DNA of 64,000 nt, from positions 186,001 through 250,000 of the forward strand of contig NW_026865168.1 of assembly GCF_026571515.1 (NCBI RefSeq), read 5' to 3'. The stretch is from Ruditapes philippinarum (Eukaryota). The notes beneath the pieces were generated by a model. It saw only the letters and a list, made by a program, of their open reading frames with translations. It was not told the DNA's origin and did no database searches. Made by a program: the position numbers and the translations under genes. This document shows, piece by piece, positions 4,510-48,822 of the stretch. Each line of letters starts with the position of its first letter. The first letter of the stretch is position 1.

Positions 4510-4792
4510 TGTTTTGTTTTGTTTGTTTGTTTGTTTGATTGGCTTTTACGTCACACCGACACAGTATAAATCATACGGCGACGTTCAAGCTTAATTTACT
4601 GATGGAGGAAGACCTCATGTGAGCTTCCGTGCATTATTTCAGGCACGGACTGGCACCTGAGTAGAATCACCGGCGTTCCGTAAGCTAGCTAGATAGATTT
4701 CTCACATGAAAGTCCCTATCGGGATTCGAACCCACAGCGGTGAGGGGCAAGTTGTTTGAAGACAACAACCTTAACCACTGGGCCCCGGACGC
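4510..4792 (-). mobile_element. tRNA-derived SINE, V-SINE type, near full length
   Basis: On the minus strand: tRNA-like head with A-box (CAGTGGTTAAGG) and B-box (GGGTTCGAATCCC), a central domain resembling the V-domain (CTTACGGAACGCCGGTGATTCTACTCAGGTGCC...GAAATAATGCACGGAAG...GAGGTCTTCCTCCA) and a (CAAA)n tail. Family assignment is from recall of bivalve V-SINEs. Confidence 0.8.
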
Positions 4793-5358
4793 TTCGGCTA
4801 TTGGGTAATGTATTGTTACAGCATGCATGTTATAAATCCCTAGAATACTTACTTATTCAAATACCATTATAAAATGAGTAAGAAATATGGAACACCATAA
4901 CTGCCTCATGTTCTTACATTTCGTTTTATCTTCCCTAGAAAGCGTCCTATAATGTCAAATATAAGTGTTGTGTTGTCCAATTTTTTGACTTGTCTAAGCA
5001 TTGCCTTATTATTGCAGCTATGACGTTCCATAAGTAACGTCTGTATATATTGAAGACGGGAGTATAATTATCAAAAAGACGCAATAAAGCCGCGTTTGCA
5101 GTTCTGCTATACTTCATAGGATAATGCATTTATAAAATTTTGACAACTAGTCCTCTGTGTTCAATTTTACAATTTGTGGCATTGGTATTCCCGGTTTTCA
5201 GTTGTTGTTGTTGTTGTTGTTTAGGATATCAAGGCCACACTGAAATTGTATAAAAAAAGACAGTATGGAGTTTGGTTCTCAGCCAATTCTAAAAGCAAAT
5301 GTGAATTAGCTCTATACTTGGTGATCGTACGACCGTTGATAAGACGAGCCCCAGAGTA

Positions 5359-5467: not shown

Positions 5468-6695
5468 AGGACAAAGCGGTAAGTCACTGGGCGTATAATA
5501 TAGCATCAAGCGGTTAGTCACCGGGCGTCTAATATAGCACCAAGCGGTAGTTCACTGGGCATTTGATATAGGACCAAGCAGTTAGTCATTTTGCGTCTTA
5601 TTTAGGACCAAGCTGTAAGTCACTGGGCGTCTGATATAAGACCAAGCGGTTAGTCACTGGGCGTCTTATATGGCACAAAGCGGTAAGTCACTGGGCGTCT
5701 GATTTATGACCAAGCAATAAGGCACTGGGCGTCTGATATAGGACCAAGCGGTTAGTCACTGGGCGTCTAATATAGCACCAAACGGTTAGTCACTGGGCGT
5801 CTTATATAGGACCAAGTGGTAGGTCACTGGGCGTCTGATATAGGACCAAGCGGTTAGTCACTTGGCGTTTGATATAGCATTAAGGGGTTAGTCACTGGGC
5901 GTCTGATATAGGACCAAGCGGTTAGTCACTGGGCGTCTGATATAGGACCAAGCGGTAAGTCACTGGGCGTCTGATATAGGACCAACCGGAAAGTCACTGG
6001 GCGTCTGATTTAGGACCAAGCGGTAAGTCACTGTGCGTCTGATATAGGACCAAGCGGTAAGTCTCTTGGCGTTTGATTTGGGACCAAGCGGCAAGTCACT
6101 GGTCGTCTGATATAGGACCAAGCGGTAGGTCACTTGGCGTCTGATATAGGACGTCCAAGCGGTTAGTCACTGAGCGCCTGATATAGGACCAAGCGGTAAG
6201 TCACTGGGCGTCTGATATAGGACCAACCGGAAAGTCACTGTGCGTCTGATATAGGACCAAGCGTAAGTTACTGGGCGTCTGATATAGGACCAAGCGGTAA
6301 GTCACTGGGCGTCTGATATAGGACCAAGCGCTAAGTTACTTGGCGTTTGATATAGGACCAAGCGGTAAGTCACTGGGCGTCTGATATAGGACCAAGCGGT
6401 AAATCACTTGGCGTCTGATATAGGACCAAGCGGTAAGTCACTTGGCGTTTGATATAGGACCAAGCGATAAGTCACTTGGCGTCTGATAAAGGACCAAGCG
6501 GTTAGTCACTTGGCGTCTGATAAAGGACCAACCGGAAAGTCACTGGGCGTCTGATATAGGACCAAGCGGTAAGTTACTGGGCGTCTGATATAGGACCAAG
6601 CGGTAAGTCACTTGGCGTCTAATATAGCACCAAGCGGTACGTCAATTGGCGTCTGATATAGCACCAAGCGGTAAGTCAATGGGCGTCTGATATGG
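5468..6695. repeat. Minisatellite, 34-bp unit, ~36 copies
   Basis: Consensus GTCACTGGGCGTCTGATATAGGACCAAGCGGTAA repeated head to tail with scattered variants and no spacers. Confidence 0.95.
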
Positions 6696-8384: not shown

Positions 8385-10562
8385 TAGCCTTCAGTCCGTT
8401 GAGGTGTTAAAGGGTGATAGCCTACAGTCCGCTGTGGTATTAAAGGGTGATAGTCTACAGTCCGCTGTGGTATTAAAGGGGCGATGTCCTATAGTCCGCA
8501 GTGGTATTAAAGGGCGATAGCCTACTTCCTGCTTTGGTATCATAGGGTGATAGCCTACTTCCCGTTGTGGTATTAAAGGGCGATAGCCTAGTTCCTGCTG
8601 TGGTATTAAAGGGCGATAGCCTACTTCCTGCTTTGGTATTAAAGGGCGATAGCCTAGTTCCTGCTGTGGTATTAAAGGGCGATAGCCTACTTCCTGCTGT
8701 GGTATTAAAGGGCGATAGCCTACTTCCTGCTTTGGTATCAAAGGGTGATAGCCTACTTCCTGCTTTGGTATTAAAGGGCGATAGCCTTCTTCCCGTTGAT
8801 GTATTAAAGGGCGATAGCCTACTTCCTGCTGTGGTATTAAAGGGCGATAGCCTACTTCCTGCTTTGGTATCAAAGGGTGATAGCCTACTTCCCGTTGTGG
8901 TATTAAAGGGCGATAGCCTAGTTCCTGCTGTGGTATTAAAGGGCGATAGCCTACTTCCTGCTTTGGTATTAAAGGGCGATAGCCTAGTTCCTGCTGTGGT
9001 ATTAAAGGGCGATAGCCTACTTCCTGCTGTGGTATTAAAGGGCGATAGCCTACTTCCTGCTTTGGTATCAAAGGGTGATAGCCTACTTCCCGTTGTGGTA
9101 TTAAAGGGCGATAGCCTACTTCCTGCTTTGGTATTAGAGGGCGATAGCCTACTTCCCTTTGTGGTATTAAAGGGCGATAGCCTACTTCCTGCTGTGGTAT
9201 TAAAGGGCGATAGCCTACTTCCCGTTGTGGTATTAAAGGGCGATAGCCTACTTCCCGTTGTGGTATTAAAGGGCGATAGCCTACTTCCCGTTGTGGTATT
9301 AAAGGGCGATAGCCTACTTCCTGCTGTGGTATTAAAGGGCGATAGCCTACTTCCTGCTTTGGTATTAAAGGGTGATAGCCTACTTCCTGCTGTGGTATTA
9401 AAGGGCGATAGCCTTCTTCCCGTTGTGGTATTAAAGGGCGATAGCCTACTTCCCGTTGTGGTATTAAAGGGCGATAGCCTACTTCCTGCTGTGGTATCAA
9501 AGGGTGATAGCCTACTTCCCGTTGTGGTATTAAAGGGCGATAGCCTACTTCCCGTTGTGGTATTAAAGGGCGATAGCCTACTTCCTGCTTTGGTATTAAA
9601 GGGCGATAGCCTACTTCCTGCTTTGGTATTAAAGGGCGATAGCCTACTTCCTGCTTTGGTATTAAAGGGCGATAGCCTACTTCCTGCTGTGGTATTAAAG
9701 GTCGATAGCCTACTTCCTGCTTTGGTATTAAAGGGCGATAGCCTATCTCCTGCTTTGGTATTAAAGGGCGATAGCCTACTTCCTGCTGTGGTATTAAAGG
9801 GCGATAGCCTACTTCCCGTTGTGGTATTAAAGGGCGATAGCCTACTTCCCGTTGTGGTATAAAAGGGCGATAGCCTACTTCCTGCTTTGGTATTAAAGGG
9901 CGATAGCCTACTTCCTGCTGTGGTATTAAAGGGCGATAGCCTACTTCCTGCTGTGGTATAAAAGGGTGATAGCCTTCTTCCCGTTGTGGTATTAAAGGGT
10001 GATAGCCTTCTTCCCGCTATGGTATTAAAGGGCGATAGCCTACTTCCTGCTTTGGTATTAAAGGGCGATAGCCTACTTCCTGCTTTGGTATCAAAGGGCG
10101 ATAGCCTACTTCCTGCTGTGGTATTAAAGGGCGATAGCCTACTTCCTGCTGTGGTATCAAATGGTGATAGCCTACTTCCCGTTGTGGTATTAATGGGCGA
10201 TAGCCTACTTCCCGTTATGGTATTAAAGGGCGATAGCCTATTTCCTGCTGTGGTATTAAAGGGCGATAGCCTACTTCCTGCTGTGGTATCAAAGGGTGAT
10301 AGCCTACTTCCCGTTGTGGTATTTAAGGGTGATAGCCTACTTCCCGTTGTGGTATTAAAGGGCGATAGCCTACTTCCTGCTTTGGTATTAAAGGGCGATA
10401 GCCTACTTCCTGCTTTGGTATCAAAGGGTGATAGCCTACTTCCTGCTGTGGTATTAAAGGGCGATAGCCTACTTCCTGCTGTGGTATTAAAGGGCGATAG
10501 CCTACTTCCCGTTGTGGTATTAAAGGCCGCTGTGGTTTTAAAGGGTGATAGCCTTCAGTCCG
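8385..10562. repeat. Minisatellite, 33-bp unit, ~66 copies
   Basis: Consensus GTGGTATTAAAGGGCGATAGCCTACTTCCTGCT; identical TAGCCTTCAGTCCG at both ends (8385-8398, 10549-10562). Confidence 0.97.
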
Positions 10563-11667: not shown

Positions 11668-12141
11668 TCAATTTCTAGCGTAAGGTGGGGGATTATCATA
11701 ATGTTTGTACGCTGGTCGTTTACCGGTATGTACGTTACATTTGTTCCCTTGGGGAGCAGGAATCACTGGGGGAGCCGATGGCGATATTATACCATTCGTT
11801 CCAGTATTAGGACGGAGCATTTCCGGTTCAACTGTAGACATGCGTGTTGGTGTTTGCATCATTTCCGGTCGAGTGCAAGCCACTGATCCATACAGATTGT
11901 CTGATTTGGAATCATATTCCTTCAGTATTTTAAAATAATCACCTTCTTCATTTTGTAGAATTACAATTCCGGGTTCAATTTCATGAGCATACACCGGTTT
12001 CATCATAAGTCGTTCATTTTCTTTCTTGTTTGACTGAGACTCGCTTGAGTTGTCGTTGCACCATTTACAAAGTGCGTATAGTGTAAGAATACAAAATCCA
12101 AACAACAAAATACCGAAGAGTAAATTACTCATCTTGAACAT
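11668..12141 (-). CDS. 157-aa single-pass membrane protein with PSAP and PPxY motifs, uncharacterised
   Basis: Non-repetitive ORF, more GC-rich than its flanks. N-terminal hydrophobic helix LLFGILLFGFCILTLYAL then CKWC; tail contains SPSAPP and NPPPY. A splice acceptor (TTTATTTTATTTTTAG) ends 7 nt before the ATG. Confidence 0.75.
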   Translation of the reverse strand: MFKMSNLLFGILLFGFCILTLYALCKWCNDNSSESQSNKKENERLMMKPVYAHEIEPGIVILQNEEGDYFKILKEYDSKSDNLYGSVACTRPEMMQTPTRMSTVEPEMLRPNTGTNGIISPSAPPVIPAPQGNKCNVHTGKRPAYKHYDNPPPYARN

Positions 12142-12329
12142 TTCTTGTCTAAAAATAAAATAAAGCCATTGTTACATTCATTATTTTGTATTTTTTATCA
12201 TAAAAATGCTTGGAATTGCCGTTCAGACGGCTATCCAAAAATCATTTTAGTAAAATAGATTCAAATGATGTTTTTTAAGAGAAATATTTCATATCTTGTT
12301 TAGCCCGTAAGAGCCTACGCACATCGTAC

Positions 12330-12420: not shown

Positions 12421-12542
12421 CATTCATGTGTTTTTTCATGTGTAAGTACATTCTTCATTTAGATTAAGGGTACATGTAGAAATGGTCAAATCTTGTTAAC
12501 TGTTTATGTCATCGTCCAGGAACATTAGATTGAAATGTTTAC

Positions 12543-12636
12543 GTTGGATTTTACGTTACACCAACACTGTCAAAATCTTTTGGTCACTTGTTAAAAAAGG
12601 CCTCAGTTGCCACTCCGGAAATTATTTGAGTAGTAC
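12543..12636 (-). mobile_element. 3' part of a degenerate V-SINE split by the foldback element
   Basis: GTTGGATTTTACGTTACACCAACAC...CCTCAGTTGCCACTCCGGAAATTATTT...GAGTAG aligns with the SINE at 4540-4665. Confidence 0.6.
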
Positions 12637-14719
12637 CACGCCTACTAAACGGTGGCTCTTTTACATTTTGGTGATCTGTTTAAATGAGAGCCATCGACAC
12701 ATCCGTTGCAGAGCCCTCGATGAAAACAAGACTGAAAAAGGTAATAAATTTTAGTAAAAATATCAATTTAAAAAGATCATGCTTGTTTTTCAAAAATCGA
12801 AGAATGTCATGCCACGTAGAACATTTTTCTCATCATGTTGGGTGAAGTTTCGATAAGAAATACCCTAAAATGACGTTGCTAGAACTTTTACCAAATATAA
12901 CCTTTTGGGTTTTCTTTTACGAGGATACATTTTTTTAGTGATTTCCCTACCGTAAAGTAGATGATGACCCACTTAATCGTGTATATAGAATTGTCCCAAC
13001 CGCCTCTTTGGACCAACACAAAAAATAACTTACAGAACTTTCTTGAAAACCAAATAATCAAATATTTATTATTGTGATCGAGCCATCGACAAGGTGCTGG
13101 CGCCATCGGCAATGTGAATGAGCCCTCGAAAATGTGATGGAGCCAACACTATCATTAATTTTGTGATAACATGACGGAGTTTAACCGTTACTTAACATAT
13201 ACAATTTCGCATGCATCGTATCATTGGGTTGACGTATTGAATTAAAATACGCGATCTGATTATTCGAATTCATGAACATTGAAGTAAAACCTCTTTTTAT
13301 AAAATATTAACATATTAGCACACAAAAATAGTTTTTTACTTTTAGTCAGTAAAATTTCAGTTTTTAATTTTGAAATTTATGAAACTTTCAGGTGGAATAT
13401 CGACATGAATAAGGGGATACAAAAAAGATTTTCATGTGGTGTGTGTAGAAAGACGTACGCCAATAAGGCCATGGTTAAATTTCATATAAAAAAACTATCA
13501 TGAGCAGGCGGCCTCTCGACTACAGAACTGTTTGGTACAATAATTGCATGTGTGGTTCTTCTTTATACTTTTTTCGCATCTTTGGAGGTGTCGTTTTAAG
13601 TTGCGTTCATAAGTAAAATGTTTCTCACACTTCCTACAATTCAGCTCATTGACATTGTGTTTTTTTTTTCGTATGTGGTCCGTCCTGTCTTTTTGTGTAG
13701 AATGAACTATTGCATTCTTTAATCGTGCACACAAGTTCCCTTTCTCGTGTATTTACACGATCAACGTGCCTTTTAAGAGAAGATGGTGTTGCGTATCGCC
13801 CATCACATATACCACATAATGTACTGGTCGCCGCCTGCTCATGATAGTTTTTATATGAAATTTAACCATGGCCTTATTGGCGTACGCCTTTCTACAAACA
13901 TCACATGAAAATCTTTTTTGTATCCCCTTATTCGTGTCGAGATTCCACCTGAAATTTACATAAATTTCAAAATTAACAACTGAAATTTTACTGACTAAAA
14001 GTAAAAAAAACTATTTTTGTGTGCTAATCTGTTAATATTTCATACAAAGAGGTTTTACTTCAATTTTCATGAATTCGAATAATCAAATCGAGTATTTTAA
14101 TTCAATATGTCAACCCAATGATACGATGCATGCGAAATTGTATATGATAATCAGTTAGGTATAATAACGGTTAAAATCCATCATATTATCACAAAATGAA
14201 TGCTGGTGTTGGCTCCATCACATTTTCGAGGGCTCATTCACATTGCCGATGGCGCCAGCACCTTGTCGATGGCTCGATCACAATAATAAATATTTGATTA
14301 TTTGGTTTTCAAGTAAGTTCTGTAAGTTATTTTTTTGTGTTGGTCCAGAGAGGAGGTTGGGACAATGCTATGTACACGAATACATGGGCCAGCATCTACT
14401 TTACGGTAGGGAAATCACTCAAAATGTGTATCCTCGTAAAAGAAAACCCAAAAGGTTATATTTTGTAAAAGTTCTAGCAACGTCATTTTAGGGTATTTTT
14501 TATCGAAACTTCACCCAACATGATGAGAAAAATGTTCTACGTGGCATGACATTCTTCGATTTTTGAAAAACAAGCATAATCTTTTTAAATTGATATTTTT
14601 ACTAAAATTTATTACCCTTTTCAGCCTTGTTTTCATCGAGGGCTCTGCAACGGAAGTGTCGATGGCTCTCATTTAAACAGATCACCAAAATGTGAAAGAG
14701 CCACCGTTTAGAAGGCGTG
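12637..14719. mobile_element. Foldback non-autonomous DNA transposon, CAC...GTG termini, 5-bp TSD AGTAC
   Basis: Arm 12637-13512 is the reverse complement of 13830-14719, with a 317-bp spacer. Ends are CACGCCTACTAAACGG and CCGTTTAGAAGGCGTG. AGTAC flanks both sides (12632-12636, 14720-14724). Confidence 0.9.
13513..13948 (-). pseudogene. Frameshifted, truncated tandem C2H2 zinc-finger exon inside the foldback element
   Basis: After acceptor TTTCAG, with two frameshift corrections: FSCDVCRKAYANKAMVKFHIKNYH, LCGICDGRYATPSSLKRHVDRVN, LVCTIKECNSSFYTKRQ..DHIRKKKH, LNCRKCEKHFTYERNLKRHLQRC, HTCNYCTKQFCSREA (cut at the arm junction). Confidence 0.8.
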
Positions 14720-14818
14720 AGTACCGCTTCCGACAATCTTAAGTCCCTGGCGAGATTTGGACCCACAGCGGTGTGGGGCAAGTGGTTTAATGTCAGCAAC
14801 ATTAACCTGACGGCCACT
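14720..14818 (-). mobile_element. tRNA-like head of the interrupted V-SINE
   Basis: AAGTCCCTGGCGAGATTTGGACCCACAGCGGTGTGGGGCAAGTGGTTT...TTAACC matches 4710-4785. Confidence 0.75.
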
Positions 14819-18102: not shown

Positions 18103-21100
18103 ATGTCGTCAAAGAGAGTGCAGAATTTCCCTGTGTTATATTTTATTTTGATAGTTTGGTGCTTCAAAACAGGTGAGTGGATTTCTTAAATGGATGCTTC
18201 ATGTTGTTTTTTTCTTCTTCATTTTGTTGTGTCGATCTTGATAGCATTTTTTATTTCTTTGAAGATATGTGATTTTAATGCTTATGGGGAAAACGATTTT
18301 GGTCTTCAACTGCTAACATTAAACGCAATGCACTGAAAACATAACTGTTGATTAAAATCAATGCTAAAAGCATTATAAATCTGAAGCTGATGGTAAGTTC
18401 ATGTCAGTAACTTAGGATGGAAAAAGCTCACAATAATTATGAGGTCTTATGATCTTATTCCATACTTGTTGTCATAACATGGAAGCCACGTCATTTAAAG
18501 GCCTGTGTATATTTTAAAACATGCATGGAATTAGATTAATATATATTCTTAAAGTACAACTCTTGCTGGGTATAGTTCACACAGAACAGAATATCTATTT
18601 GCTTATAATAATATAAACTGCAAACTCATTTCTATTTATAGGATTATATCAAGCCTTATCAACAACTGATCGCACAACAGATCATACATCATCTGCACAA
18701 ACTCCAGCCCTGTCTTTACCTTCAAACATAACGTCAAATTCCACATCAGATTTTCTGACTACCACTGCTGCTGCAGTAACTTCTACGACAGGTTAGTAGA
18801 ATATTGATTTATCTCAAATGGTATCGGTTTGAGACAGCAATAAACTTTCAATTTACAGCCGCCCTTTACAGTATTCCATTTCGTTATTCTTGAGATAATG
18901 CATTGTATCATTTCTGAACATGAACACACTATCGTATCAAATCCATTTTTGTTCTTACTGCAGCTTACAGTAACTTTTCCTTTGTTGATTATATAAGGTA
19001 ATCAAATATAATTATTATATAATAGAATGTATTATTCTACGTAATTACAGGTAGTGGAACTTGTAACAACTTAGGATACGTGTATGACATTGAAGACAGT
19101 GTTCATTACAATTTGTATATTGGAAACTGCCGTGACAGCTGGTGCAATAGCTCATTTTGGGGAGGTCGCGTACAGATTCCGTGGCAGGGAAATATCAACA
19201 AACAATGCTCAAAAAGGCCAAACGATTATTTTGCCGTGTTAAAAGGTAATGGTTATCATGCTTCTTGTATAAGAAAATACGAAACATGCATCATTTTATA
19301 GAATCAGAGGATTTGTAATACTATTTCGTACAAATCACCAACGTTTACTAGTATTTATCTTTTTTGTTATAGTTTTGTATCTTATAAAGAGCTTTAACTT
19401 ATACAAAGCAACTTTAGATATGTATTTTGAGATAAGGAAATCTAATTATATGTGAGAAATATCATGAAGTTAGCCAGACAGTCGGAACAGCCCGAGTAGC
19501 TGGAACGTTTTTTGTCTTGTCCGGCTATTCCGTCCGGAAACCGGTTCCAGCTGAACCGGATAGCCAGAGTTGATACATTTATACCTGTGTTAAACATAAT
19601 AATAAAAATAATCTAGTTTCAAATTCGATATCCTGCTATTCCGGCTGGTGTACGGACATAATCCCCTTCGGACAAAATCCCCTTCATGTATTTTTGTATA
19701 TCTGGACATAATCCCCTCCATGGGTGGACATAATCCCCTTCATGTGTGAAATTTTGAAGTGGACAAAATCCCCTTCATAAAATTGCTACCTAGGACAAAA
19801 TCCCCCTCGGAGGAATTTTTGGTTTATAAAGTGGGTATGAGAGTGACATACTGCATTATGCTGTGTGGTAAATATCTTAATGTATAAAAATGTAGAAAAT
19901 ATTTCAGCAGAAAAGCACATTCAATTAGCACATTTTAATCATGTTAAAATTGCTTTATTAAAGCATTCATAACAATCAATCAAGTAGTGCAGTGATCTTG
20001 GTTTGATTAAATTATCACTCTTTCATCAATAGAAATTGTAATCAATGAAACAATTATTGGCTAATAAAATGTTTTTCATACTAATCAATTTAAAACAATT
20101 AAAGAAATTGCCTAATCAAAAATGTGTTACGCAGTTGATAATTTACCATAATTTTAATGAAAACATCTAAACTAAATAAAGGTTAACTATTGATACATAA
20201 TGATAAATAAAAAACAAAAGTTCATTATTCATCAATTTTTAGGGAGTATAATAATACATTATTCATCAATTTTATGGAGCATAATAATACATAAGAAACC
20301 TATGAAACAAGGGGATTTTGTCCGGATAGTGAAGGGGATTTTGTCCGGCCTTGCAAAAAAAATGAAGGGGATTATGTCCACCCATGAAGGGGATTTTGTC
20401 CGGGTAGGCGAAGGGGATTTTGTCCGAAGGGGATTATGTCTGACATTCATTCCGGCTAGCTAGAATAACCGGAATCACGGCTGCTACTGACGACCAAACA
20501 AGTTCGACACAAATTTAAGGAGAATGTGTCCGTCTTAAATGATGTGTCTGTGTTATACTGGTATATGTGTGTCCGTCGGGTATACTCTGGTATTCTGCCG
20601 ACGTCCGGACTGTAAATGGTCAATTTAACTTATAATCTCGACATTTCCGGCTGGCCCCTGTGAGGCTGTGGCTTGATTCCGCAGAAGCCGATATGGTGAG
20701 ATGATTAGGAGGTAAGATTATAATATATTATATGGTTGGATAGTTAGAGGGTCATGTAATCCCGAGACTCAGTTCCACAGGAACATATTAAGTTTCATGC
20801 TTTGGGGTCCGACTGTGTGTCAGCTGTTATACTCTGGTATTTTGGTTATTATAGCTCAAATGTTGCCATTTATTTATGTAATTACACAACAACATTTTCT
20901 TAGTATTAAGGTAAATACATGTATCAAAAGTATCTCAATTTAAATAACATGATCATTTGTACTTTTGTTAAACATAGGAATATTTGTTTCGAACTGGCCT
21001 AATTTACAAATTAGATTAAATTAGATATTTGAGCTTCTAAAATTAAGATGACATATTTCAAGTTTCAGTGGTTAGTATCGTCTTTAAATCATTGGGGACA

Positions 21101-24100
21101 ATCTGGTGTTCATTTGATATATTTTGAATGAGACGTTGAGAAGCTGTCATATAAATGAATGCATGTTTTGTGGAGCAAGTTCATTTTGAAAATTTTGAAA
21201 ATATGTGGAGTGAAAAATTGAGTTGCGGTACAGCCTCTTTTCATGTTATTTTCAATGCACATGCACTGAGTTTGAACAGGAATCAGTGCAGAAATTTATA
21301 AATGTAATTGTCATAAATTAAGTCATTACCTTTAATGTATAACTATGGTATGAAATGCTAAATGAATGTAAATATTATTTTTAAAAAAATATCGTGATCT
21401 CGTGTTTTAATTCAAGGTTAAGTTCTCTATAATTGCAAAAAAGCGTAAAACAAAGGTTACCATGATTGCGAAAATATATTTTGTACATAAGGAGGCAGAA
21501 TACCTCAGTATTTCCAACGGACCGGCTTATAAAATCGGACACACGGTCAGATCCAGTAACCATCCCACCATATGGGGCTCTGTGGCATTTTGGCGTGGGC
21601 TCACAGGGACCAGCCAGAAATAGCGAGATGTGAGCTGGAATTACCATTTATAGTACGATTTTCAACTCAACGTCGTCAAAATAACCACAGTATTCTCGAG
21701 AGACACACCTATACCAGCGGACAAACTATCAGACCAGCTTATTATCCCACCGAATCGGGTTTTACGGAATTGAGCCTGGGTCTCACTTCCGCAAGCAGGA
21801 AATGTCAAGATATGAGCTAAAATGACCATTTGTGGTACGATTTCGGCTCAACGGCGGCAAAATACTAGAGTATTTCTGACGGACACACCTATACCAGTGG
21901 ACATCCGGACACACCGTTCACAACACACATATTATTAAATCTGTCAACGGATTTTTTTTCACCGTAAGTAATCTTGATTTCGGTTATTCTGGCTAGGCGG
22001 AAGAGCCAGATATCGAGTTGATGAGTACTTTGAAACTTCATTAATGAGTAAACCAATTACCTTTTGCACGTGTTTTACTGTGCAGTATTAGTTCTGGTCG
22101 GAACCGGATTCAGGCAAACCGGACTACCTACAACAGCCGGACTAGACAAAAATGTTTTCCGGCTGTTCCGACTGTCTGGTTTTACTTCAAGAACGTATGT
22201 AAAAACCCTGTTAAACAGGTCAATATTTTTCCAGTTGCAAACAAGAACGTTGAAAAATCAAAAAGCTTGTTCAAAGGTATAAGATTACAAGCGGCTTTCG
22301 ACTGTCTAAAGTCTTAAAGTAACAGAACGAGCACCGAACATTAGTCTATCTAAGTATAAATCAGATTGCCGAGTGTTTTGATGTTCTTTCTCTTTTGTAT
22401 CATAATCAAAAATAAAAACAATCTGTTGTTGTATCACAGTTTGGGGACCTTTCTGTTGAAAATTTGTCAGAGTTAAATCGTATACATATACATGTACAGT
22501 GCGTTAACTGATGTGAGGGTATTAATTAGTTACCCGCACTCCAGAGCATGCCATTTAATTGGTTCATTTTGTCTGGGGTTTACATATTGTGAAGATAGAG
22601 AAAGGGATAGCGTTAGAAATATCATTTTCAGATGCTCGTTCATTGGTTACCTTTTTTCTGGGGTTTCATATTGTGACATCAGGGAACGTGTTTTTATTTT
22701 TGACTATGGTACAAAAGAAAAAGAAAAATAGCTCTTGCTAATACTTGGTGTTTTTTTTTAATCAGAAGAGCACATGGATATATCGGATATAGGCGAGAAT
22801 GTCATTACAGCGGAAGTTTGCATATTAAATCACACTGATGAATGTATAGGAAATTTCACTGTAGAAATGAGAACTTGTAACGGTCACCTACTATACAGAT
22901 TTCCGTTGGGCTCTGACTACAACATTTACTACAATACTTACGTTTGTTTTGGTATACTTTCGTTTTGTTTCCTTTATAAAACAAATTGGAAAATAAGTTA
23001 TTGCGAGAATTTTTTTATTATAACCATTAATACTGTGGAATATTTATATAAGTTAAATGTAAAAAGAATGTTCACATCTCGAGCCTCTGATGATACCTTT
23101 GTTTATAGACAATTGATTGTTGTGAATTATGAGGCAAGGTGCAAGCTCGTTATATTAGTGGATATAATATAATATCTCAAAAATTTTGATTTTATGCTGG
23201 CAAAAATTCTAAAACTTTTCATTTATTATTTTGCAGATAGAGTAAATACAGATTGTAAGTATCAGGTAAAAATTATTAAATGATATTTTCTAAAATTAAA
23301 CTTGTTGTCAGATAGTTATATATGTATACCTGTATGATACTGCACGTTTGTAACGTCCTTTTTTCATTAGATAATCGTAACGTTTATATAATCTATATAC
23401 ACGGCTGCAGTCGATTTATGATGTTATTTCATGTTTTCTTGCATATCAGACAGGATTATCTACAGTTTGCACCGGTACTAGAAAAACCTGTCTTACATGA
23501 GTGTGTAAGACAGGTTTTTCTAGCACCGGTGCAAACGGTAGATAATCCTGTACTTTAACTGACGTCATTGTCTCGCGCCCTTTATGAATCATATGCGTTC
23601 TTAGGATGACGTCATTTTACTGTTATGAATTAACTTGTAAGTCTATACGCAACTATAAGAAACAAGTGCTTAATGAGAATATCAGTTTTCGTAATTTCTG
23701 TTCTGAAAATAATTGATATGTATTATGCAATATTAAGAATCAAGTACAGACGGGAATATCTAGCTCTCGGGTAACTGTTTCGGCAGAGCCTCGTTACCGC
23801 CGTAAACAGTTACCCTCGAGGTAGATATTCCGGTCTGTACCGGCAGCCAGTTTTAAATTCTTATATTCTCGAGTTAAAGAAATTTGCAGTCTTATAACAA
23901 AGATTCATTTAAGATCGTATATAAAAACAGTTATTTGCATCATAGCCCTCTCCTACCGGCTCATATAGGACACTATAACATGTGCAAATAATTTCATAGT
24001 GTAGATCTAGATACACTGTTATATCAGTTTTGTTGAGAACACGGGTACAAAGTTAACAATCAACATATAATATAAAGACCAAAACAGAACACTATTGTTG

Positions 24101-27100
24101 AAAGTGTATAACACAACTTGTTTACCTAAATATGAATATTATTTTCAGCTTGCCAGTCATCAGAGTCTGTTTACTCTGCTGGAAACGTGACAGATAGGTT
24201 CCTAAACTTGCCATATACTGATGTCCAGCTTGGATGGTTAGACGCTCATCAAAAAGGGAAACAGTATGTGCTGCCTGCCTTTGACGATGTTGATGAAGTT
24301 TTCGATGAATGTATCGGTATCAATTATTGGCATCCCGACGTTTTCTTTCTGAAAGGTGCATTTTGCAAATGGTCATACTTACAACAAACGTACTTTCTTG
24401 ACAATTAATCGAATTAGATAAATAGTCTTAAATGTTGATGTTAATAACGGCATATATGTAAAGTTATCAAATGCGTAAAAGTTCATGCTGATATTTTGTT
24501 TTTGCTTTCATTTTTTCAGCTATCCAGCTGGCCCTAAAAAAGCCAAGCTTACATAAGCGTTTATTCTGAGGGACGTTGAAAAGTTAATTAAACAGTTTTA
24601 AGCATTATTCAACTTTGATGAGTGTATACATCAATGCGTCATTTATTTTCAGAGAGAATATTTCTAGATATACCAGAGAACATTCCTGTCAAGTATGCAG
24701 TTTGCTATGTTTACAAACGTAACTTAGACTATGATTATTACGATAACTATGTTGATGGGGAATATTATTATGATGAGTATTGTACTCGTTACATTTATGC
24801 AAGAAAATGTGATGGGAAAATCCAGTTTGATGTATCATTTTTTCCCTTTTATGGTCATTTGTGTCTCAGTAAGTATTCTTTCAAATCAAATATAGTCAAG
24901 TTTAGAATTTTTATCCATATTAAGATCGAATTATTTCAGATAACATTGTTTTAAAGAAGAAGCCGCTTTCGTGTCTATCTTTTCTCAGAATATTTTCGCA
25001 ACGTGTTTTCCACTCTTGGCGTTATAAAATAAAACATCCAATATAGTGCCTCGCATACTAGAGACCGTTATCCTTTTCAAATTATAAAAACATTTCGTAC
25101 ACTTTCAAATGTAATTACATTTTGTTTTATTAAAAATATCAAATATTGTATATAATTAATTTGTTCTTTGAATGTTTATTTTAGTTAAAGTTTCAATAAT
25201 TGTTTAAAATGCCGTTGAAATGTCAGTCGAAAAATAAAGGATCAAAATAATGAAATTAAATTCGTTAAAAAATTTTAAAAATACACTAAAGCCGTGGAGC
25301 TTGAATGAGGAATTTTGGCGTCGGAGACCATCATCTGAGTTTCCGAAGAAAAACAACTTTCATTTACTACATTGTTTTTAGCTAATTGCATCATTTTCCC
25401 GGTTTTTTTAATTACATATTTTATAAAAATATGATAGTCTAATATAAATTCTGGCAAATCTTAATAAGAGATTTCAGTAAAAACATGTGCCTAAAAATAT
25501 GTTGAAAGGGACATTTATTTAGCTTATCTAAATGTGACATTTAAGAAACTTGACTAGATGAAGATGCGGCCTTAAGTAGTAGTCCGTACAGGTAGTACTC
25601 AAAAAAATCATAAACTGTTTAAGTAGTCACACATTAAGAACGGAACTTTATAATAACGTAAAGTACTCATGGGGGTCTAGTATATAATAATAGAATAAGT
25701 CAGTATTCAGTATTTAAGCAGAACTCAGTTGACACCTTCAGAACTCTTGTAACCCAAAGTGCGTTGATATGTAGCATATTAACGCACTTTGGGGTCAATT
25801 TCTCGATTTTGACCCTAAAGTGCGTTGCACCCAAAGTGCGTTAGACCCTAAAGTGCGGTGTTACAAAGCATATATGACAGTAAAATCAAGATTAAAACCT
25901 TAATTACATAATAATAATAATAGTAATAATAATAATAATAATACAATGTAATAATAATAATAATAACAACAACAATAATAATGAATATATACTAATTTTG
26001 TCAGTTCATTACAACAATGTGAAAGTAAAACCAGAAATAAAACACAGAGAAGACAGAGTCAGTGGTGATAGAATTATATATAGAGCATACATTCAGTTCA
26101 GATGTTCATTTGTGATAACTGGCGATACTGCATACAAAGTGAAATGGTAAAAACACCATTATATAATTATTTGATTTCTGATATTTTATATTTATTTTAT
26201 TATATTGTTTTGGATAGCTTTATTGCTGAGATTTTTTTTATTTCCAAGACGAATGGCAATGGTTGTTAACAATGGAACAATTAGTTGAATTACAAAATAA
26301 ATCATTCCGTTACTATATTTCATTAATGTCCTTATGTACACATAAATCATTGGATACTCTACAATTTTTTCTTTATCACTAAACATTTGATGTAATATAT
26401 GCTCGAACGTTTACTAAAATATAACTGATTAATATACGACATAGTAGTACTTTGCACAAACAAAATATTTTTTTCATGTAAATTATTATTTCATTTGTTA
26501 TAAACAACATGTCTTTTGGTGTTTTAGTTTTGAAAATTGTACGTTGTGTTGTTTAAAAAGACAAAAGGGAGAAGTTTTCCTAAGTATGTAAATGATCATC
26601 ATGCTATGTATATATAAAAACGATAAAATGTCCTTAACATCTCTTTCAAAAAGGTATATCAATGGAACACTATGGGATGAGACAGGATTTTCATCTAATC
26701 CGGATGACCTTGTATTAAGCGGAGATTCTTTAAATCAATTACGACTTGGATATGAGGTAGATAAAATCAGGGGCTAAATATTTTACCTTTTATAAATCTG
26801 CCATAGATATACATATTATAACCGTTGATGGATAATAGTATGTTATTTTAAGTTTTGTATGCGATTTATTGGACGATTCAATAACAATTGTATTGTTCAT
26901 CCACACTTTAAATACATTCCATGCTTAATGTTAATTTGTTATACTGTGCTCCTAGTGTTGTATTATTACTAATACATGTATATATAATTATATTGCCTTA
27001 ATAAAACGAGATTAAAGTGTCTTTAAAGTGTTCATAAACTATCTTTGCAACAGCAGTGTAATTTCTCTACGGATAACCACTTTAACCTCGGCATGGCGGA

Positions 27101-28547
27101 GTGGTTAACGCGTCGGACTAGTAATCTAGCCGCATGAGTTCAAACCCCATCAGGGGCAAGTCGTTGTTTCTTTGAGCAAGAAACTTCACACTCATTGCTC
27201 ATTTTCTCGCTCAGGTTGGTTCCAGGAACGGATTCGAAAGTGTGGCTTTAAGCTTATAGCTTCTACACAATCGAACTACAATAAACTCAAACTGTATAAA
27301 TCAAAGTTGACCTCTCTAGATAAACACATTTCAGTAATAACCAAACTCTTTGTCAACTAAAGGGTGTTACCTTTCAGAAGTTTTACCGTACTTTGAAGAC
27401 TTTAGAGTTCAAAAATAGTTGTTACATTCATTTACTTATCAAACTATCGTTGGGAACTTATAAGTCTCTTTGAAAACGGGGATAAAACATTTCGTTTCAG
27501 GTGAAATGCGGTGTCATTGCAGCTGGGACAACAGATGAAAAATTAAGCAATAATTTTTTCGCAGGTTGGAAGGTAATATATTAACGATATTATTTGTATA
27601 AACATTAAATGCATAATTTGTGTACAACTTTTAAAATCTATTATTTAGATATTCGCATCCAGGCTTACTTAATTTAGTATTCCGAGATTGTGATATGAAT
27701 GGTTAAAACGATATATTATTTTTTTCTTGATACACCTACTTGGTAAGAATAATGCAATTGTTAATAAAAAGATTATCGAAACACGACACTAAATGATTTG
27801 AACGGGGGAGCGTCACCGATTGTTTTGGTATTGTTTTTTCTCTCCTTTGTATCAAATCAATTTCCCTGTCGTCTCAATATGAAACCCCAGAATAAATGAA
27901 CCAATGAAAGAGCATCGGATCATGATTCTCCATCATTTCCCATTCCTTGTTATCACAATAAGTAAATCCCAGAAAATGTAGCCAATCAACGAGCTTGCTT
28001 ATTTATATTAGACTGACAGCTGCATTCCATTTAACGCACTGTGCTTTTATGGTTATACGATTTAACTCATGACACTTTTTCAAAGGAAAAGTAGTCTAAA
28101 CTATGATACAATAAACAGTTAGCGGATTATCATCTTATGCATGTGATCGGTAAAGATTTCAGACACATCCAGAAGACTTCCAAAGAATGGATATGCTATC
28201 ATTGAAGTTGAACAGACAGTGCCTTTAGGTTGTACATACATCAATACTGGAGAAGAAGTGTGCGAGGAAACGCTTTCGATTTCAGACGTTAACCGTGAAA
28301 TTGATGCATGCAACGCTGGAATACACGTGATGAACGCTGATAATAACAGTACATCTTCTCACAAAATAAAGGTTCGTTGATAAAAACTGTATACTCAATG
28401 TGTTAATGTATGTTTAAAACTGAATTGCAGTTCATCTCGAGGTGATATTTATTTCTTCTTTAAATACATATTCTTCCAAATAGAATTATTGTCAGTATTC
28501 CCATCATCGAGACATAAATGGTTAGACGTAAAAGGTTTATATTTAGG

Positions 28548-28613
<66 letters not shown>

Positions 28614-31600
28614 CTTTATTGAACTACATTAAGTAGAGGATAAAAGGTTATAATTTTACTAAGGTATATATCTATATTGAACATATGTCAATTTCTACAA
28701 TATATAAAGGATAAAGAGTTAATGTTTATCTAGTTATACATCTATATTTAAAATGAGTGTTTTTCTACATTATTTAGAGTTTGATGGTAGGTGATGTTTG
28801 GAACTCCAGCATCAAGTATAGATTTAGATTAACTACAATAGATCATGACTACGATGACAAACTGAACTTTGACATGGAGTTGCTTGTAACTAAGTCTGAA
28901 CTGACAGAAGTAGTAAATACTGAGGTAAGATTTTATTGTTGAGCTTTACATGAAGGTGCTTCATACAAAACCAATATAATTTGTTATTACTGAGGTATGA
29001 TAAAATTGTTGGCGTATACATAGAGGTGTTTGTCACAAAATCTGTACTTACGGAGTTGGAAGATAAAAATGTAAAATAAAATTGTTTGCCCATACATGGA
29101 GGTGATTCATACGAAACTGATTTTGATGACAATTACTGATGTTAGATAAAATTGTTTGCATGGACTGTAGCTAGATCTGCACTGACAGAAGTGGTTATTA
29201 CTGAGGTAAGATTAAGTTGTCGAGCTATACATGGAGGTGTTTGCAAAATTTGTCCTGACAGAGGTGGTAAAGTGGTAAACTAAAATTGTTTTCCTATACA
29301 TGGAGGTGCTTGTTTTCACTGCCAGAGTTGGTAAATAAGGAGGTTAAAATAAAATTGTCAGCCTATACTTGGAGATGCTAACTGACAGTGTTGGTTAAAA
29401 CAATTGTTGAGGTGCTTCTTATATAGTTTACAGACAGAATTTGAAGAAACCAAATAAGGTAGAATTGATGACATAAACATAAAGATGCTTGTAACAAAGT
29501 TTACAATGACCTTTTCTCTCCATTAATGATTTGTAATTTAGAAAACTTATAAGGTGTACACCAGTTCTAAAAGAAAATGAAGCACTATTATAAAATTTTA
29601 AAATTACAATCATCCATTTCACTATTCTTTTTTATAGTTCAATAGTATATTACACATGGTATATCTTTAATTATTTCAGCGCATTGGAATCATTGCGGTA
29701 AGAACAAAATCAATACAATTCTAAGGATCATATCATTTTAATATCGAAATGCTTTAAAAAGTATTAATAACTTTTTATGCTTTATAACGTACATGTATTA
29801 AAATGTGTACACTTTTATGCATCTGCAGATGGAAGTGCATGAAACAATGTTGCATTTACCTTTTATTGTCCTAAACAACTGCAATCCTATGTAATATTTT
29901 GTTCAAGACAGCTTTTTGTTTTCAATATTTTTTATCATGTTTTTATTTACTTATTTATTTATTGTTTTTTTGTTTGTTTTTTGGAAGGGGTGGATGTGAT
30001 TTGTGGTATTTGTTTCTTTGTTTTATTTGTTATTTTATTGTAAGCATGTAATGTTGTTTTTCCTTGTAAGATTGTAAGCATTTAACTCAAGGTTTAGATG
30101 AACAATATTCTTATGTAATATAAAGGTTGAAGTGACACACTCGGCAATACACAGATACAAACGATGCTACTCGCATGCTGATCCCCACGTGCGAACCGCC
30201 GACGGAAGGTAAGTGTAGCTTGGTCACTTATTATAGAGAGACATGAGGTACCAGGGTTGCGTTTCATAGAATGTGAATAGTCCGAATTCTTAAGACCAAA
30301 ACTGGGATAGTTGTGTGTTTCAAAGAAAAAAAATGTCCTGACCTATGACTCTTATATCATGAATGATTCTGAATAGCATTGGTATTTACACATTGCGAAT
30401 AAAAAGGTTTGTAATTGAAGTGGCTGCAGTACTTTTAGTTATTTCTATTTGGCTTCTGGTGCTTACGGTACTCCTTATTCGAATCGTGTTTAATCACCCA
30501 TAGTATATTTTGGCTGCTTTTAAAATGTGTATTTTGACGTCTTGTGTGTGAAATGCATGCTTCATAACATCTGATCCACTTTAAAAATCCATTTTATTTA
30601 GTTTCGTCCATTGTTTCCTTGCATTCCTTTAATTAAGAATAACACGCCGCCCTTCATGGAATGGCACTAACATGTCACATTGAAAAGTCCATTATAACCG
30701 CCGTGCGATCACATCTGAAGTAAACATTTTACCATTTCATGTTAATTGTTGAATTCTTCTCTGGCCGATGATGAATTTTATAAGAACTTCATCCGACTCA
30801 TATTAAAAACAAGGAACGTAATAGTTCCTAATAATATTTGAATGTACACATAAGGATTTTATCATTTCAAATTGGATAAGCTTTATAAAATTTGTATATA
30901 TCTAAATCAACACCAGACTTAGACTGTTTTTTGTATGTTTGTATAGGTATTTCGGGCAACAATTGGTCGGTGATCACATGTTTTATAGAAACAAGGCATA
31001 TCAGACAGAGGTAAGTTTTGATTGATCATCTATAATCAAATATGTTGATCTGTCTAAACATGCGTGACTCGAATAATTCAAACTGAATTTACATTGCCTT
31101 GAACAGTGAAGTTGGACTAAAATATTACATATTGATAACGTCGCTTTTCATTTGACCTTAGTTATGTTATATTATCAATATATCTGGTGTACATTTTCAT
31201 TTAAAATGTGCTTGAATACATGCTTACATATTAACATGCATGAGCAGAACTATGACAATTTACAATACATATTAAAATGATATTTGTAATATCAAAGAAG
31301 TGTAATTAATGCGTTATAAACACTTTTGACATGGTATATGACCAATAATAGATTAACTATGTAACATTATTATCTAATAATACAAAAATTGTAACCGTTG
31401 ACACGCGGCCACATAAACATAGTCAAAATATTTCAACATCAAAAGTTAAATTCTGTGGTACTTTTTGTTCTGGGTCATAATATCGCTGGGAGATATTGCC
31501 CATACATAAAATACTGCTAATCCTACAGAAGAACGGTCGTTTTTTACATTTAGTACAACAGAATGTCGCTTTCCACAAAATACTTCCTTTTCTGCAACAA

Positions 31601-34600
31601 GACTAAACAACAATCAATTTATACTTATAATTATATTATTTGATATTAAAGGTTCATGAATATGCCAGATACTGTAATGATAATGGCGGAGCAGTGTGTG
31701 CTTGTGGTGTAGCGATCAGGGCAGGGGCTGATGTCTTTGTAATTAACAGATGTGGCAACTACACGATATTAGACTTCTTACAATGTAATGATGGAGGAAT
31801 CATTGATGTTCAACGGATCCATGATTATCGTTACAAGGTTTTGGTTTCTTTTCTTCATGTGCTGCTGAAACATTCAGGGGCTCCAAATACTATTTTGAAA
31901 GAGGAATTTAATAAACATAAAAGGACTCCATAGAGGTCCAAAACCAAATAAAATCGAATTTCTTTCATAGATCAACCTGGGCATTTAATACGGAAAGATA
32001 TGCAAAAGATAATTAAGAAATATACTCAGAAATACATTGAAACCAGCTATTTGCAGTAGATGTGAGTGAAAAACATTGAACGATTTTAAATGTTGGGCCA
32101 TCTTTCATAGTTGAAATAATTATTCTGGTAAAACGGAGTAAGTGAATGATCTGAAATTGTGCTTACAAGTTTTTGTTCTTCATCTAATGGAGAATTCATC
32201 CCGAACAATTAAAAGTCCCGTCACGGCAAAAAACCTGAGAGCAGTCCCTTTATAATGGTTTAAGCGATGGCATCAGTAAAAATGAGGAACACACCCCTGT
32301 TCGGTGTATCTTGATTTTCCGTGTATATGAATTTCATGTATACATAATTTGGCTGATATGTTTTGTTCCTGTAATTTGGATTCAATTGTTTTAAGTCTAT
32401 TGTTTCTGTTGCATGATTACTGTTGTATTTTGAGCATAATGTTTACAAATTTATTGAAATGCAATCGAGTGTATGTTTGTTGTTAAGATGCAATGAAATC
32501 TATGTTTTATTTATTTTGCAACTGAGCTTGGTGTATGTACAGTTCTTCTATTTGTGATGTAAATGAGCTCTGTCTATGTTTGGTAGGTAATAACACCAAT
32601 AGGAACTGTGATCATTGTAAATCTTCACTCCTGGGGGAGGACGATGGATATTGATATTTACTTATCTGCCAAAGATTTTCACAACACTGACGGACTTTGT
32701 GGATATTTTGATGGAGATAGAAACAATGACTTTAGGCACAGAGATGGCTCCCAATCGTCTCCATCACATGACTATTATGGTTATAATGACTTTATAAAAA
32801 GTTGGAGGTATACAGCAATAATTTAGTTGCTATTTGTTATTGTTTAACACTTGTCTCAATCAAATTTTTCCCCAAATGTTAAAAGATCGAAAGCACAAAA
32901 TGTTTTTACAAGTTTATTCTTCATTGAAAGATGTAATGTTCTTAATATTTTTGCTTCATTTTTTTTTACATACATGTTTATATCTATTTTACATTAATTT
33001 ATATATCTATTTTACATTAAATTATATTTCTATTTTAATTTATATATCTATTCTACATAAATGTATATACCTATTCTACCTATTATACATTAGTTTATAT
33101 ATTCATCCTACATTTATTTATATATCTATTCTACATTGATTTATATTCAAAATGTTAGTATGTCTGAAGTATCACTTTATAAAAATAGATTACTAGATGA
33201 GGAAAACTTCTTACATAATGCCAGCCGTGTCTTAGAGAAATGGAATGTTAACAATGGAGCATCCATGGATCCAGCTTGTTCGAACGGTAACTCGATATCT
33301 AAGAATAAATGTCAGTTTGGCGGAGAGAAGAGAAAACGGCGAGATGTCGTCACAAGAATTGGAAAAGAAATAATGTCAAGTATCAATAACATGAGAGAAA
33401 AGGTAAGTTGCCTAAGCAACATGTAAATGTAACTCAATGCACAAATGGTAGGTTCATATTATTACAATGGTTACAAAATACATTTATGCATAATGAGATA
33501 ATTAATAAATAACTGTTGATGTGTTATCTATTCATGCTACATATATGTTTAGATATTTAGGCTCGCTTTGCAGTTTGATTTTTTTTGCCATTCACTTCCG
33601 TTTAATAATTAATAACGACGCATTAATTTAGATTAACTTATATTTTACAGATCATTAGAAAAACATTTTTAATACCTTCACAGAGATATTGAACAATGAA
33701 ATTAAACGAAAATCTTTATCACCAAGCCACAACAGTTTTCAAATGGAAACAAAACTCCTTTACAATGATGTATTAAGTAAAAATGGAAATATAATACTTA
33801 TTTCCCAATTTTATCCAATAGAGAAGTACTGGAGGGGACATTTCAGACGATAAAGCTCGTGAAATATGTAATAACTCTATAACTGGAGCCCCATCCGTCA
33901 CAGAATTCTCGGACCAGCTTGGAGATGAAGACACAAACATTGTATTTGACCAATGCGTGTATGACATTATTGTAAGTCTACTCTTATTTCATGAAGTATA
34001 ATTTTATATATAATCATTTGAAAATTATGTAACATTGTTTGACAGTACCAACAGTTCCAAGTATCATCCCTGATACCTCAGCCGTTGAATTAAATAGTTG
34101 TAAATAAGGTATATTATTTATAGAAGGCATTAGGTAAAACATTTGTAATATAGTTTGGGCATCAGCCAACACCGATGTTCTATATAGTTTAATTACTTAT
34201 TTAACATTAGAGCATGGTAACAGTACAGTATGGGCATCAGTACATGTCGATGTTCTACATAACTTTATTACTTATTTAACATTATAGCATGGTAACAGTA
34301 CAGTTTGGGCGTCAGCCCATGCCGATGTTCTACATAACTCAATTACTTATTTAACATTATAGCATGGTAACAGTACAGTATGGGCGTCAGCACATGTCGA
34401 TGCTCTCAATAGTATAGCATCAACAGTGATCAGTCTAAGTCCTGATTTTGCTGCCAACAATTCTGAAACAGTAAAAGCATTCCTGTCACAGACATGTACA
34501 AATAACTGTAGTGGACATGGAGTATGCTCCGATTCAGGTCAATGTTTGTTTGTTTTTTGTTTTACTTTTTGTTTGTTCTGAATTTATAAGATTTGATTTT

Positions 34601-39423: not shown

Positions 39424-40095
39424 TCACTTACCCTCCCGTTCCTACCCGTCTCTCCACTCCGAGCTTGTCTGCTCGTGCCGTCCTGATTCCGCTCTGGATC
39501 TCACTTACTCTCCCGTTCCTACCCGCCTCTCCACTCCGAGCTTGTCTGCTCGTGCCGTCCTGATTCCGCTCTGGATCTCACTTACTCTCCCGTTCCTACC
39601 CGCCTCTCCACTCCGAGCTTCTCTTCTCGTGCCGTCCTGATTCCGCCCTTGATCTCACTTACTCTCCCGTTCCTACCCGCCTCTCCACTCCGAGCTTCTC
39701 TGTTCGTGCCGTTTTGATTCCGCCCTGGATCTCACTTACTCTCCCGTTCCTACCCGCCTCTCCACTCCGAGCTTCTCTGCTCGTGCCATCCTGATTCCGC
39801 CCTGGATCTCACTTAATCTTCCGTTCCTTCCCGCCTCTCTACTCTGAGCTTCTCTGCTTGTGCCATTCTGATTCCGCCCTGGATCTCACTTACTCTCCCG
39901 TTCCTACCCGCCTATCCACTCCGAGCTTCTCTACTTGTGCCATCCTGATTCCGCCCTGGAACTCACTTACTCTCCTGTACCTACCCGCCTCTCCACTCCG
40001 AGCTTCTCTGCTCGTGCCGTCCATGATTCCGCCCTGGAGCTCACTTACTACCCCGTTCCTACCCGCCTCTCCACTCCGAGCTTCTCTGCCCTGGA
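39424..40095. repeat. Pyrimidine-rich minisatellite, 77-bp unit, ~8.5 copies
   Basis: TCCCGTTCCTACCCG at 39434, 39511, 39588 and onward at 77-bp steps. Confidence 0.95.
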
Positions 40096-42980: not shown

Positions 42981-43071
42981 ATATATTTTTGAAATATTTG
43001 TACATTCGCCACGCTTGTTGTTAATGTTAAACACAATGTCCGGATTTTTTTTTTTGTATTTGTAATAACTG

Positions 43072-48755: not shown

Positions 48756-48783
48756 TGGTATTTTGATTCCAAATGTTTGTTTT

Positions 48784-48822
<39 letters not shown>

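Follow-up and report, generated by a model that had tools for sequence, protein, structure and literature searches.

The window analysed here is a 64,000-nucleotide stretch of Ruditapes philippinarum DNA (contig NW_026865168.1, positions 186,001 to 250,000 of the forward strand), and all coordinates refer to it. It is eukaryotic DNA, AT-rich and repeat-rich. A foldback transposon holding the remains of a zinc-finger gene lies at 12637-14719, inside a tRNA-type SINE. It has the features of the foldback type, namely long inverted arms, a duplication at its ends and no transposase. The element and its insertion site are made up as follows.

12637-14719, no strand: non-autonomous foldback DNA transposon, 2,083 bp, with the parental end present twice.
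12637-13512, plus strand: left arm, 876 bp, which starts with CACGCCT and runs 2-3 nt into the GC microhomology found where the arm meets the spacer.
13830-14719, minus strand: right arm, 890 bp, with 43 substitutions in 874 aligned positions and 5 indels relative to the left arm.
13513-13829, minus strand: spacer, in which the zinc-finger gene of the right arm goes on, in single copy, through fingers 2 to 5a.
12632-12636, plus strand: left target-site duplication AGTAC; the by-chance probability of a given 5-mer is ~0.001.
14720-14724, plus strand: right target-site duplication AGTAC.
12536-12636, minus strand: tail half of the SINE hit by the foldback; the joined flanks align to an uninterrupted copy at 4532-4800.
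14725-14815, minus strand: head half of the same SINE.

The arms are 95% identical and end symmetrically in CAC...GTG. The terminal 16-mer occurs in only 2 places in the window with up to 3 mismatches allowed. When the foldback is cut out the SINE halves rejoin, as in the uninterrupted paralogue within the window. The foldback therefore inserted as one whole unit. Two 10-nt motifs of the interrupted SINE match razor clam tRNA-V SINEs in the accessible part of the PMC10294476 supplement, and the wider likeness was judged by eye. The AGTAC duplication is perfect and 5 bp long on each side of the foldback, as read from this one insertion (n=1).

The SINE carries a CAC of its own at the insertion point, which allows an 8-bp duplication (AGTACCAC/AGTACCGC) to be read instead. 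That reading needs a mismatch and a left end that is 3 nt shorter, and is less parsimonious. Because of the mismatch and the asymmetric end, we prefer the 5-bp reading. A Polinton derivative was also considered. Polinton/Maverick elements have 5'-AG termini and a 6-bp duplication, and such a derivative is ruled out by the CAC...GTG ends and the 5-bp duplication.

CAC ends with 5-bp duplications are described as the mark of Transib and RAGL elements, and the accessible parts of the same papers present Transib as transposase-only and RAGL as RAG1L plus RAG2L (PMC1131882, PMC4411706, PMC7204232, 10.1101/100735). For the whole CMCT clade, the accessible text of PMC12730594 gives CA..TG ends and 2-5 bp duplications. 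The foldback end matches the heptamer CACAGTG/CACAATG at 3/7 positions, and the A-A positions of the nonamer are occupied by TT (24-25) and GT (35-36). The ungapped match to the protostome RAGL consensus CACTWMCAAACKTYKBB is 8-9/17. The end also carries AAACGGTGGC, which matches the tail of this consensus at 9/10 positions with a 3-nt shift, a match equalled by 28/1,351 other CAC sites. Judged from these features, the foldback appears to behave as a Transib-type cut-and-paste derivative with Transib/CMCT-like ends.

A parent from another superfamily has to be weighed at this point. The zinc-finger gene would then still be element-encoded, and the parent would be, for example, a hAT5 element with 5-bp duplications or one whose 8-bp duplication has been misread. 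The departures from the Transib heptamer and nonamer fit such a parent, as does the imperfect 8-bp reading permitted by the SINE. hAT families with 5-bp duplications exist (PMC12730594, accessible text), and a 2026 preprint states in its accessible part that footprints are labile and should not override transposase-based classification (10.64898/2026.08.26.747230). A separate C2H2 ORF is reported in the MULE Spectre, and the accessible part of that source describes a C2H2 zinc-finger ORF beside the transposase in both Spectre and Mutyl (PMC6446971), which sets a precedent for cargo of this type. Unlike the foldback, these two lineages, compared here by description, have 8-10 bp duplications and belong to another superfamily (PMC6446971). 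CMC elements (En/Spm-Chapaev) likewise differ in the accessible text, with 2-4 bp duplications versus 5 bp (10.64898/2026.08.26.747230). Set against a parent outside Transib/CMCT, the 5-bp reading combines a perfect duplication with symmetric CAC...GTG ends, and the end carries the RAGL-like AAACGGTGGC. We regard such a parent as very improbable.

No transposase was found among the 99 window ORFs of at least 68 aa. The curated bivalve DDE library (PMC10294476) contained no terminus motif and no Transib entry in 354,229 characters of its 2.5-MB file. The accessible parts of PMC8355894 and PMC6431247 added nothing to the comparison.

The gene remains in the element are the following.

13511-13935, minus strand: main zinc-finger pseudogene, in which the start codon has become ACG; it retains fingers 1-4 plus the first half of finger 5.
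13405-13512, plus strand: left-arm gene start, with ATG (MNKG), finger 1 and a frameshift at the 7-A run 13488-13494.
13386-13391, plus strand: candidate splice acceptor TTTCAG of the left arm, which would close a 5'-UTR intron.
13949-13954, minus strand: candidate splice acceptor TTTCAG of the right arm.

A preliminary description of this DNA had reported TTTCAG followed by finger 1 in both arms, and an A-run of 7 A in the left arm and 5 A in the right. Both observations were reproduced, the 5-A run lying at 13848-13852. The frame restored with 6 A reads FHIKNYH, and the same reading is found in the database relatives P0025, P0153 and P0003 (database records are given by P numbers). From the right arm the minus strand reads finger 1, a frameshift, finger 2 plus half of finger 3, a second frameshift, the rest of finger 3, finger 4 and half of finger 5, where the gene is cut at 13511-13512 at the GC microhomology. 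The run through the spacer to the junction had thus been described correctly, but the "about five fingers" given for it are four whole fingers and half of a fifth, and the parent has six. The first frameshift is the 5-A run and the second, in finger 3 at 13690-13694, had been overlooked. Each A-run departs from 6 A independently, as had been proposed. We read these changes as ordinary slippage, because 3/5 indels between the arms are homopolymer-length differences; assembly error is a possible alternative. A 10-A run at 13660-13669 gives the pseudogene an extra in-frame Lys relative to P0153.

All three in-frame pieces matched C2H2 in Pfam, at E 5e-4 to 1e-2 and in every case below the curated cut-off. 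The three pieces are 86%, 81% and 79% identical to intact P0153 (183 aa), which reads through both breaks and on into a sixth finger. Six tandem C-x2-4-C-x12-H-x3-5-H units are present in P0153, P0003, P0155, P0020 and P0110. Derivation of the fragment from a real poly-C2H2 gene is supported.

The left-arm ATG (ATG-AAT-AAG-GGG, at 13405) is 13 nt past the AG of the proposed acceptor; the right arm has ACG. Any intron would therefore be in the 5' UTR. Four intact relatives start with MNKG (P0153, P0003, P0155 and P0020) and P0161 starts with MNPC. Since the intact relatives start at the same Met, the coding part would be one exon. A crude score over 6,092 AG sites ranks the TTTCAG no higher than their top 3%, and another TTTCAG lies 31 nt upstream; as an acceptor it is common among AG sites but plausible. 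Two distant relatives have YLQ-M and FICR-M directly before the start, residues that would back-translate to acceptor-like sequence. No upstream coding exon stood out in the arm: the best donor-like site before the acceptor is at arm nt 105, and none of the frames contains an obvious conserved exon.

Further copies of the foldback, as loci or alleles, are represented by ORF calls in five other records (P0002, P0005, P0017, P0006 and P0025). P0002 runs from arm nt 16 across a ~450-nt deletion into the gene, which links terminus and gene in a second record. The record lacks arm nt ~68-521, from the terminal motif to the end of the 20-bp array described below, and a TGA in it was translated as Trp by its source. 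The position near one end of the element that had been suggested for the gene is borne out by the window copy, in which the gene lies ~0.77 kb inside the terminus, and by P0002, which reads from terminus to gene. P0005 and P0017 cross the foldback junction, with the same break in finger 5 and a left arm that is ~165 nt longer. P0006 and P0025 cover the zinc-finger gene. Over the right-arm pieces that it covers, P0025 is identical at 80/81 residues; its first A-run is intact and it shares the second frameshift. The spacing at the second site is intact in P0002, P0006 and P0017, and P0005 differs again. A second frameshift older than the foldback family was ruled out, as junction-bearing P0017 is intact along with P0002 and P0006, and only P0025 shares it. 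We infer that the foldback was founded once, from a gene that was still largely intact, that copies followed, and that the window copy underwent another deletion.

A protein search of 1.84 billion representatives gave 665 matches at E<=0.001, of which the best 150 were listed, and an alignment-based search for further relatives gave 71 matches among 527 candidates. The parent-type protein is ~180 aa long, with six fingers and no other domain. Its family has at least 12 all-finger members of 150-233 aa at 32-71% identity (P0153, P0003, P0155, P0020, P0161, P0071, P0090, P0110, P0149, P0152, P0158 and P0174). The fourth finger is C2HC across the family. The TGEKP linker is found in 0/12 members versus 160/318 generic zinc-finger proteins. 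Profiles built with one group left out at a time scored 6/8 groups above all 318 other zinc-finger proteins; the exceptions were P0090, which 2 generic proteins outscored, and P0174, a truncated record that 3 outscored. In a tree with the 30 best-scoring other proteins, 11 family members form one side of a 96/89 branch (P0174 was omitted as short). Host poly-C2H2 transcription factors share the canonical finger spacing, and there is sequence similarity to the structures of ZFP568, CTCF and TFIIIA. Unlike these factors, the family has no effector domain, no TGEKP linker, a fixed C2HC fourth finger and a separate branch.

Could the fingers be an exon of a longer spliced transposase transcript, in which they would form a module for DNA binding at the N terminus, or could they be one product among several of alternative splicing? 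An acceptor-like site does precede the finger exon. TnpA and TnpD of En/Spm arise by alternative splicing (PMC1636069), and RAG1 and Chapaev transposases with N-terminal zinc modules are described (PMC4411706), each in the accessible part of the source. Most intact relatives, on the other hand, run from a Met just before finger 1 to a stop just after finger 6 (179-186 aa). No longer protein with a close version of the fingers was present among the matches listed, where genomic ORF calls would miss spliced fusions. With the 12-member alignment, the best 120 of 504 longer matches were only generic poly-finger proteins at 23-35% identity, and no transposase catalytic family was recognised by eye among them. 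This is weak evidence that a close longer or fused form is absent. We consider the exon explanation quite improbable.

The finger 3b-5a piece gave no match in a word-index search of proteins of 105-2000 aa. A scan of prokaryotic genomes that used the close alignment gave 124 pattern matches, none of them confirmed, and a terminus scan of these genomes gave 1 match, a 20-nt chance match in a bacterial contig with no similarity beyond it. Phage (tblastn) and plasmid (blastn) collections gave no match. The ESM Atlas, queried with P0020, returned generic C2H2 clusters only.

Another alternative is capture of the Pack type: a non-autonomous element would have acquired the 5' portion of a host gene, one of a small and fast-evolving zinc-finger family, and the fragment would then have been amplified passively. 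C2H2 genes are abundant among host genes. Within the arm, the element-type motifs end at nt ~516 and the gene begins ~250 nt later, which is the expected place for captured DNA, and no transposase was seen among the window ORFs. The database records argue in the other direction. An NCBI/UniRef/nr source was found for 0/11 family records versus 18/60 other records in the alignment search, and no annotated host gene appeared among these 11 or among the best 120 of 504 longer matches. Missing host annotation is weak evidence for a family borne by the element. Among the database relatives, intact homologues were not confined to an annotated host gene, the outcome that the preliminary description had named as pointing to a one-off capture. 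In a distant branch of the family, P0149, P0152, P0179 and P0190 are 82-97% identical and lie on four different contigs of 1.5-2.8 Mb, possibly from different assemblies. Three of the four are damaged: a zinc ligand is missing from P0152, while P0179 and P0190 are incomplete or carry frameshifts. The pattern fits dispersed decaying copies, and the six-finger family looks mobile rather than single-copy.

The arms also contain a repeated motif that bears on the function of the gene.

12647-12722, plus strand: terminal copies of GAGCC(A/C)(T/C)CG, one of them inverted (arm nt 11-22) and two direct (52 and 75), with mirror-image counterparts in the right arm.
13073-13145, plus strand: 20-bp x 3.7 array, unit TGTGATGGAGCCATCGACAA, based on the GAGCC motif; predicted site of fingers 3-6.
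14204-14282, minus strand: right-arm copy of the 20-bp array.

Copies resembling GAGCC(A/C)(T/C)CG occur seven times per arm, three near the tip and four in the array (arm nt 439-516). The strict form GAGCC[AC]TCG occurs 8 times in the foldback and 0 times in the remaining 61.9 kb of the window. The array folds no better than shuffled sequence (z -1.1).

The helix positions that contact DNA (-1/3/6) were compared with those of P0153. Matches were found at 16/18 positions in P0003, 17/18 in P0155, 11/18 in P0020 and 9/18 in P0161, while the other non-structural positions matched at 62%, 56%, 20% and 25%, respectively (one-sided p 0.02, 0.001, 0.0006 and 0.035). P0020, at 41% identity, keeps 11/18 contact positions versus 23/115 others. 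Among the seven most distant relatives, conservation of the contact residues was significant in only one. In the closer relatives this pattern points to selection on DNA contact. Conserved contacts also fit orthologous host factors, and to that extent they agree with capture.

The recognition code was a published count table (Table S2 of PMC1183507). The predicted target of fingers 3-6 is GTG-GTG-GAC-CCG. On both strands of the 890-nt arm, the four best predicted sites for fingers 3-6 all fall within the 20-bp array. Three are in the 20-bp register (GTGATCGAGCCA, GTGCTGGCGCCA and GTGATGGAGCCA), and the fourth is the near-palindromic reverse of GTGATGGAGCCA. By the best-three-sites measure, fingers 3-6 were equalled by 3/213 generic six-finger arrays and 2/200 finger-order permutations, each control being granted the best of four sub-arrays. 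The best single site was not significant, as 31/213 generic arrays and 22/200 permutations did as well. The 20-bp unit has a conserved TCG that does not suit fingers 1-2, and the tip copies of the motif do not have the 5' GTG that finger 6 should read by prediction. The array match was spotted by eye before the test and is a post hoc prediction. Binding of fingers 3-6 to the foldback's own array is a lead, not proof. The predicted match favours a protein adapted to the element and working on its own promoter or ends, and a predicted site in an array whose core also occurs at the element's tips speaks against capture. Taken with the database records, this makes capture rather unlikely in our judgement.

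The explanation that we lean towards, with modest confidence, is that a Transib-like (CMCT) transposon itself encodes the six-finger gene, as an accessory gene for a DNA-binding protein. The window copy, dead and non-autonomous, would stem from one end of a larger transposon of the cut-and-paste type, which had CAC ends and made 5-bp duplications. This parent would belong to the CMCT clade, closest to Transib/RAG-like elements. A gene of its own, ~0.77 kb inside the end and transcribed inwards, would encode the ~180-aa protein, which consists of six C2H2-type fingers with C2HC in fourth place. By prediction, its most likely binding site is the 20-bp array just upstream of the gene, whose core is common to the terminal motifs. 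It may act as a sequence-specific helper in promoter autoregulation, end recognition or both, by analogy with TnpA in En/Spm. The foldback probably arose once, when the break in finger 5 was rejoined to an inverted copy of the same end, and would have spread by transposase supplied in trans. The window copy would later have lost ~165 bp more of its left arm through the GC microhomology.

En/Spm (CACTA) resembles the foldback in its CAC end and in an internal motif repeated in both orientations near the end. TnpA binds the subterminal repeats of En/Spm; to our knowledge it is not a C2H2 protein. It is described as an accessory gene product that binds DNA, has no catalytic role and controls the promoter of the element (PMC1636069, accessible text). 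Accessory genes are also reported in the accessible parts of papers on Kolobok (PMC9587614) and Plavaka (10.1101/2025.02.11.637652). Transib has a CAC terminus, a 5-bp duplication and abundant non-autonomous derivatives, as does the foldback, but the accessible text gives transposase as its sole encoded gene (Kapitonov & Jurka 2005, PMC1131882); the foldback parent is a candidate for a second gene, and its heptamer matches at 3/7. RAGL/TransibSU/ProtoRAG elements, bivalve RAGL included, share the CAC ends and the 5-bp duplication, and their two intron-containing genes transcribed inwards from the ends can be likened to the layout of the foldback parent (PMC4411706 and PMC7204232, accessible parts). 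Unlike that of the foldback parent, their second gene encodes a kelch-PHD RAG2-like protein, not a six-finger protein.

The preliminary description had called the cargo non-standard for a Transib/RAG-like element. Our literature search, with Repbase, Dfam, subscription papers and preprint supplements outside its scope, agrees with this and gave no description of a six-finger gene in a Transib/CMCT element. Likewise, we found no description of the six-finger gene family itself in the literature, Repbase/Dfam entries again being outside the search. A more tentative proposal, which we hold to be possible but somewhat less likely than not, is an undescribed Transib/RAG lineage with a two-gene design independent of RAG2. 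It would pair a transposase with a C2H2 protein of six fingers that stands alone, has diverged to ~30% identity within its family and reads the internal repeat of its own element, giving programmable recognition of ends or promoter.

The best-known role of C2H2 arrays is to repress transposons on behalf of the host. If the proposal is true, a zinc-finger array would serve a transposon instead of opposing it. A layout of this third kind, with a sequence-specific zinc-finger partner, would be relevant to how RAG-family recombinases acquired accessory subunits and to how end specificity changes. A transposon-borne C2H2 family directed at the transposon's own repeats would turn host repression around, and new host zinc-finger genes and binding sites could arise from it. 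The window copy is dead, and its value lies in what it points to: one terminus, one family of genes and one specific prediction of binding.

The rest of the window was also surveyed; Rfam gave 0 matches over its whole length. At 11668-12171 (minus strand), 460 bp from the foldback, a 167-codon open frame has a hydrophobic N-terminal stretch followed by PSAP and PPPY, with no Pfam match. We take these motifs to be late-domain/WW-binding-like. A 33-bp x 64 tandem array at 8403-10526 (91% matches) has long open frames on both strands, and further tandem arrays are 34-bp x 36 (5468-6693) and 77-bp x 8.6 (39424-40089). Scattered exon-like frames at 22762-36644 (plus strand) probably belong to a host gene with a VWD domain (Pfam VWD 32587-32823, E 2.6e-6). 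LINE fragments lie at 44114-45703 (minus strand), with a reverse transcriptase match at 45215-45703 (E 6e-14) and a C-terminal-like frame. Several blocks of 71-86% identity between 41766-49717 and 52311-58565 mark an old local duplication. A MITE-like inverted repeat with internal repeats of 16 and 22 bp is present at 19655-20440, and a near-perfect hairpin at 23450-23551 has 48-nt arms that are 96% complementary and a 6-nt loop.
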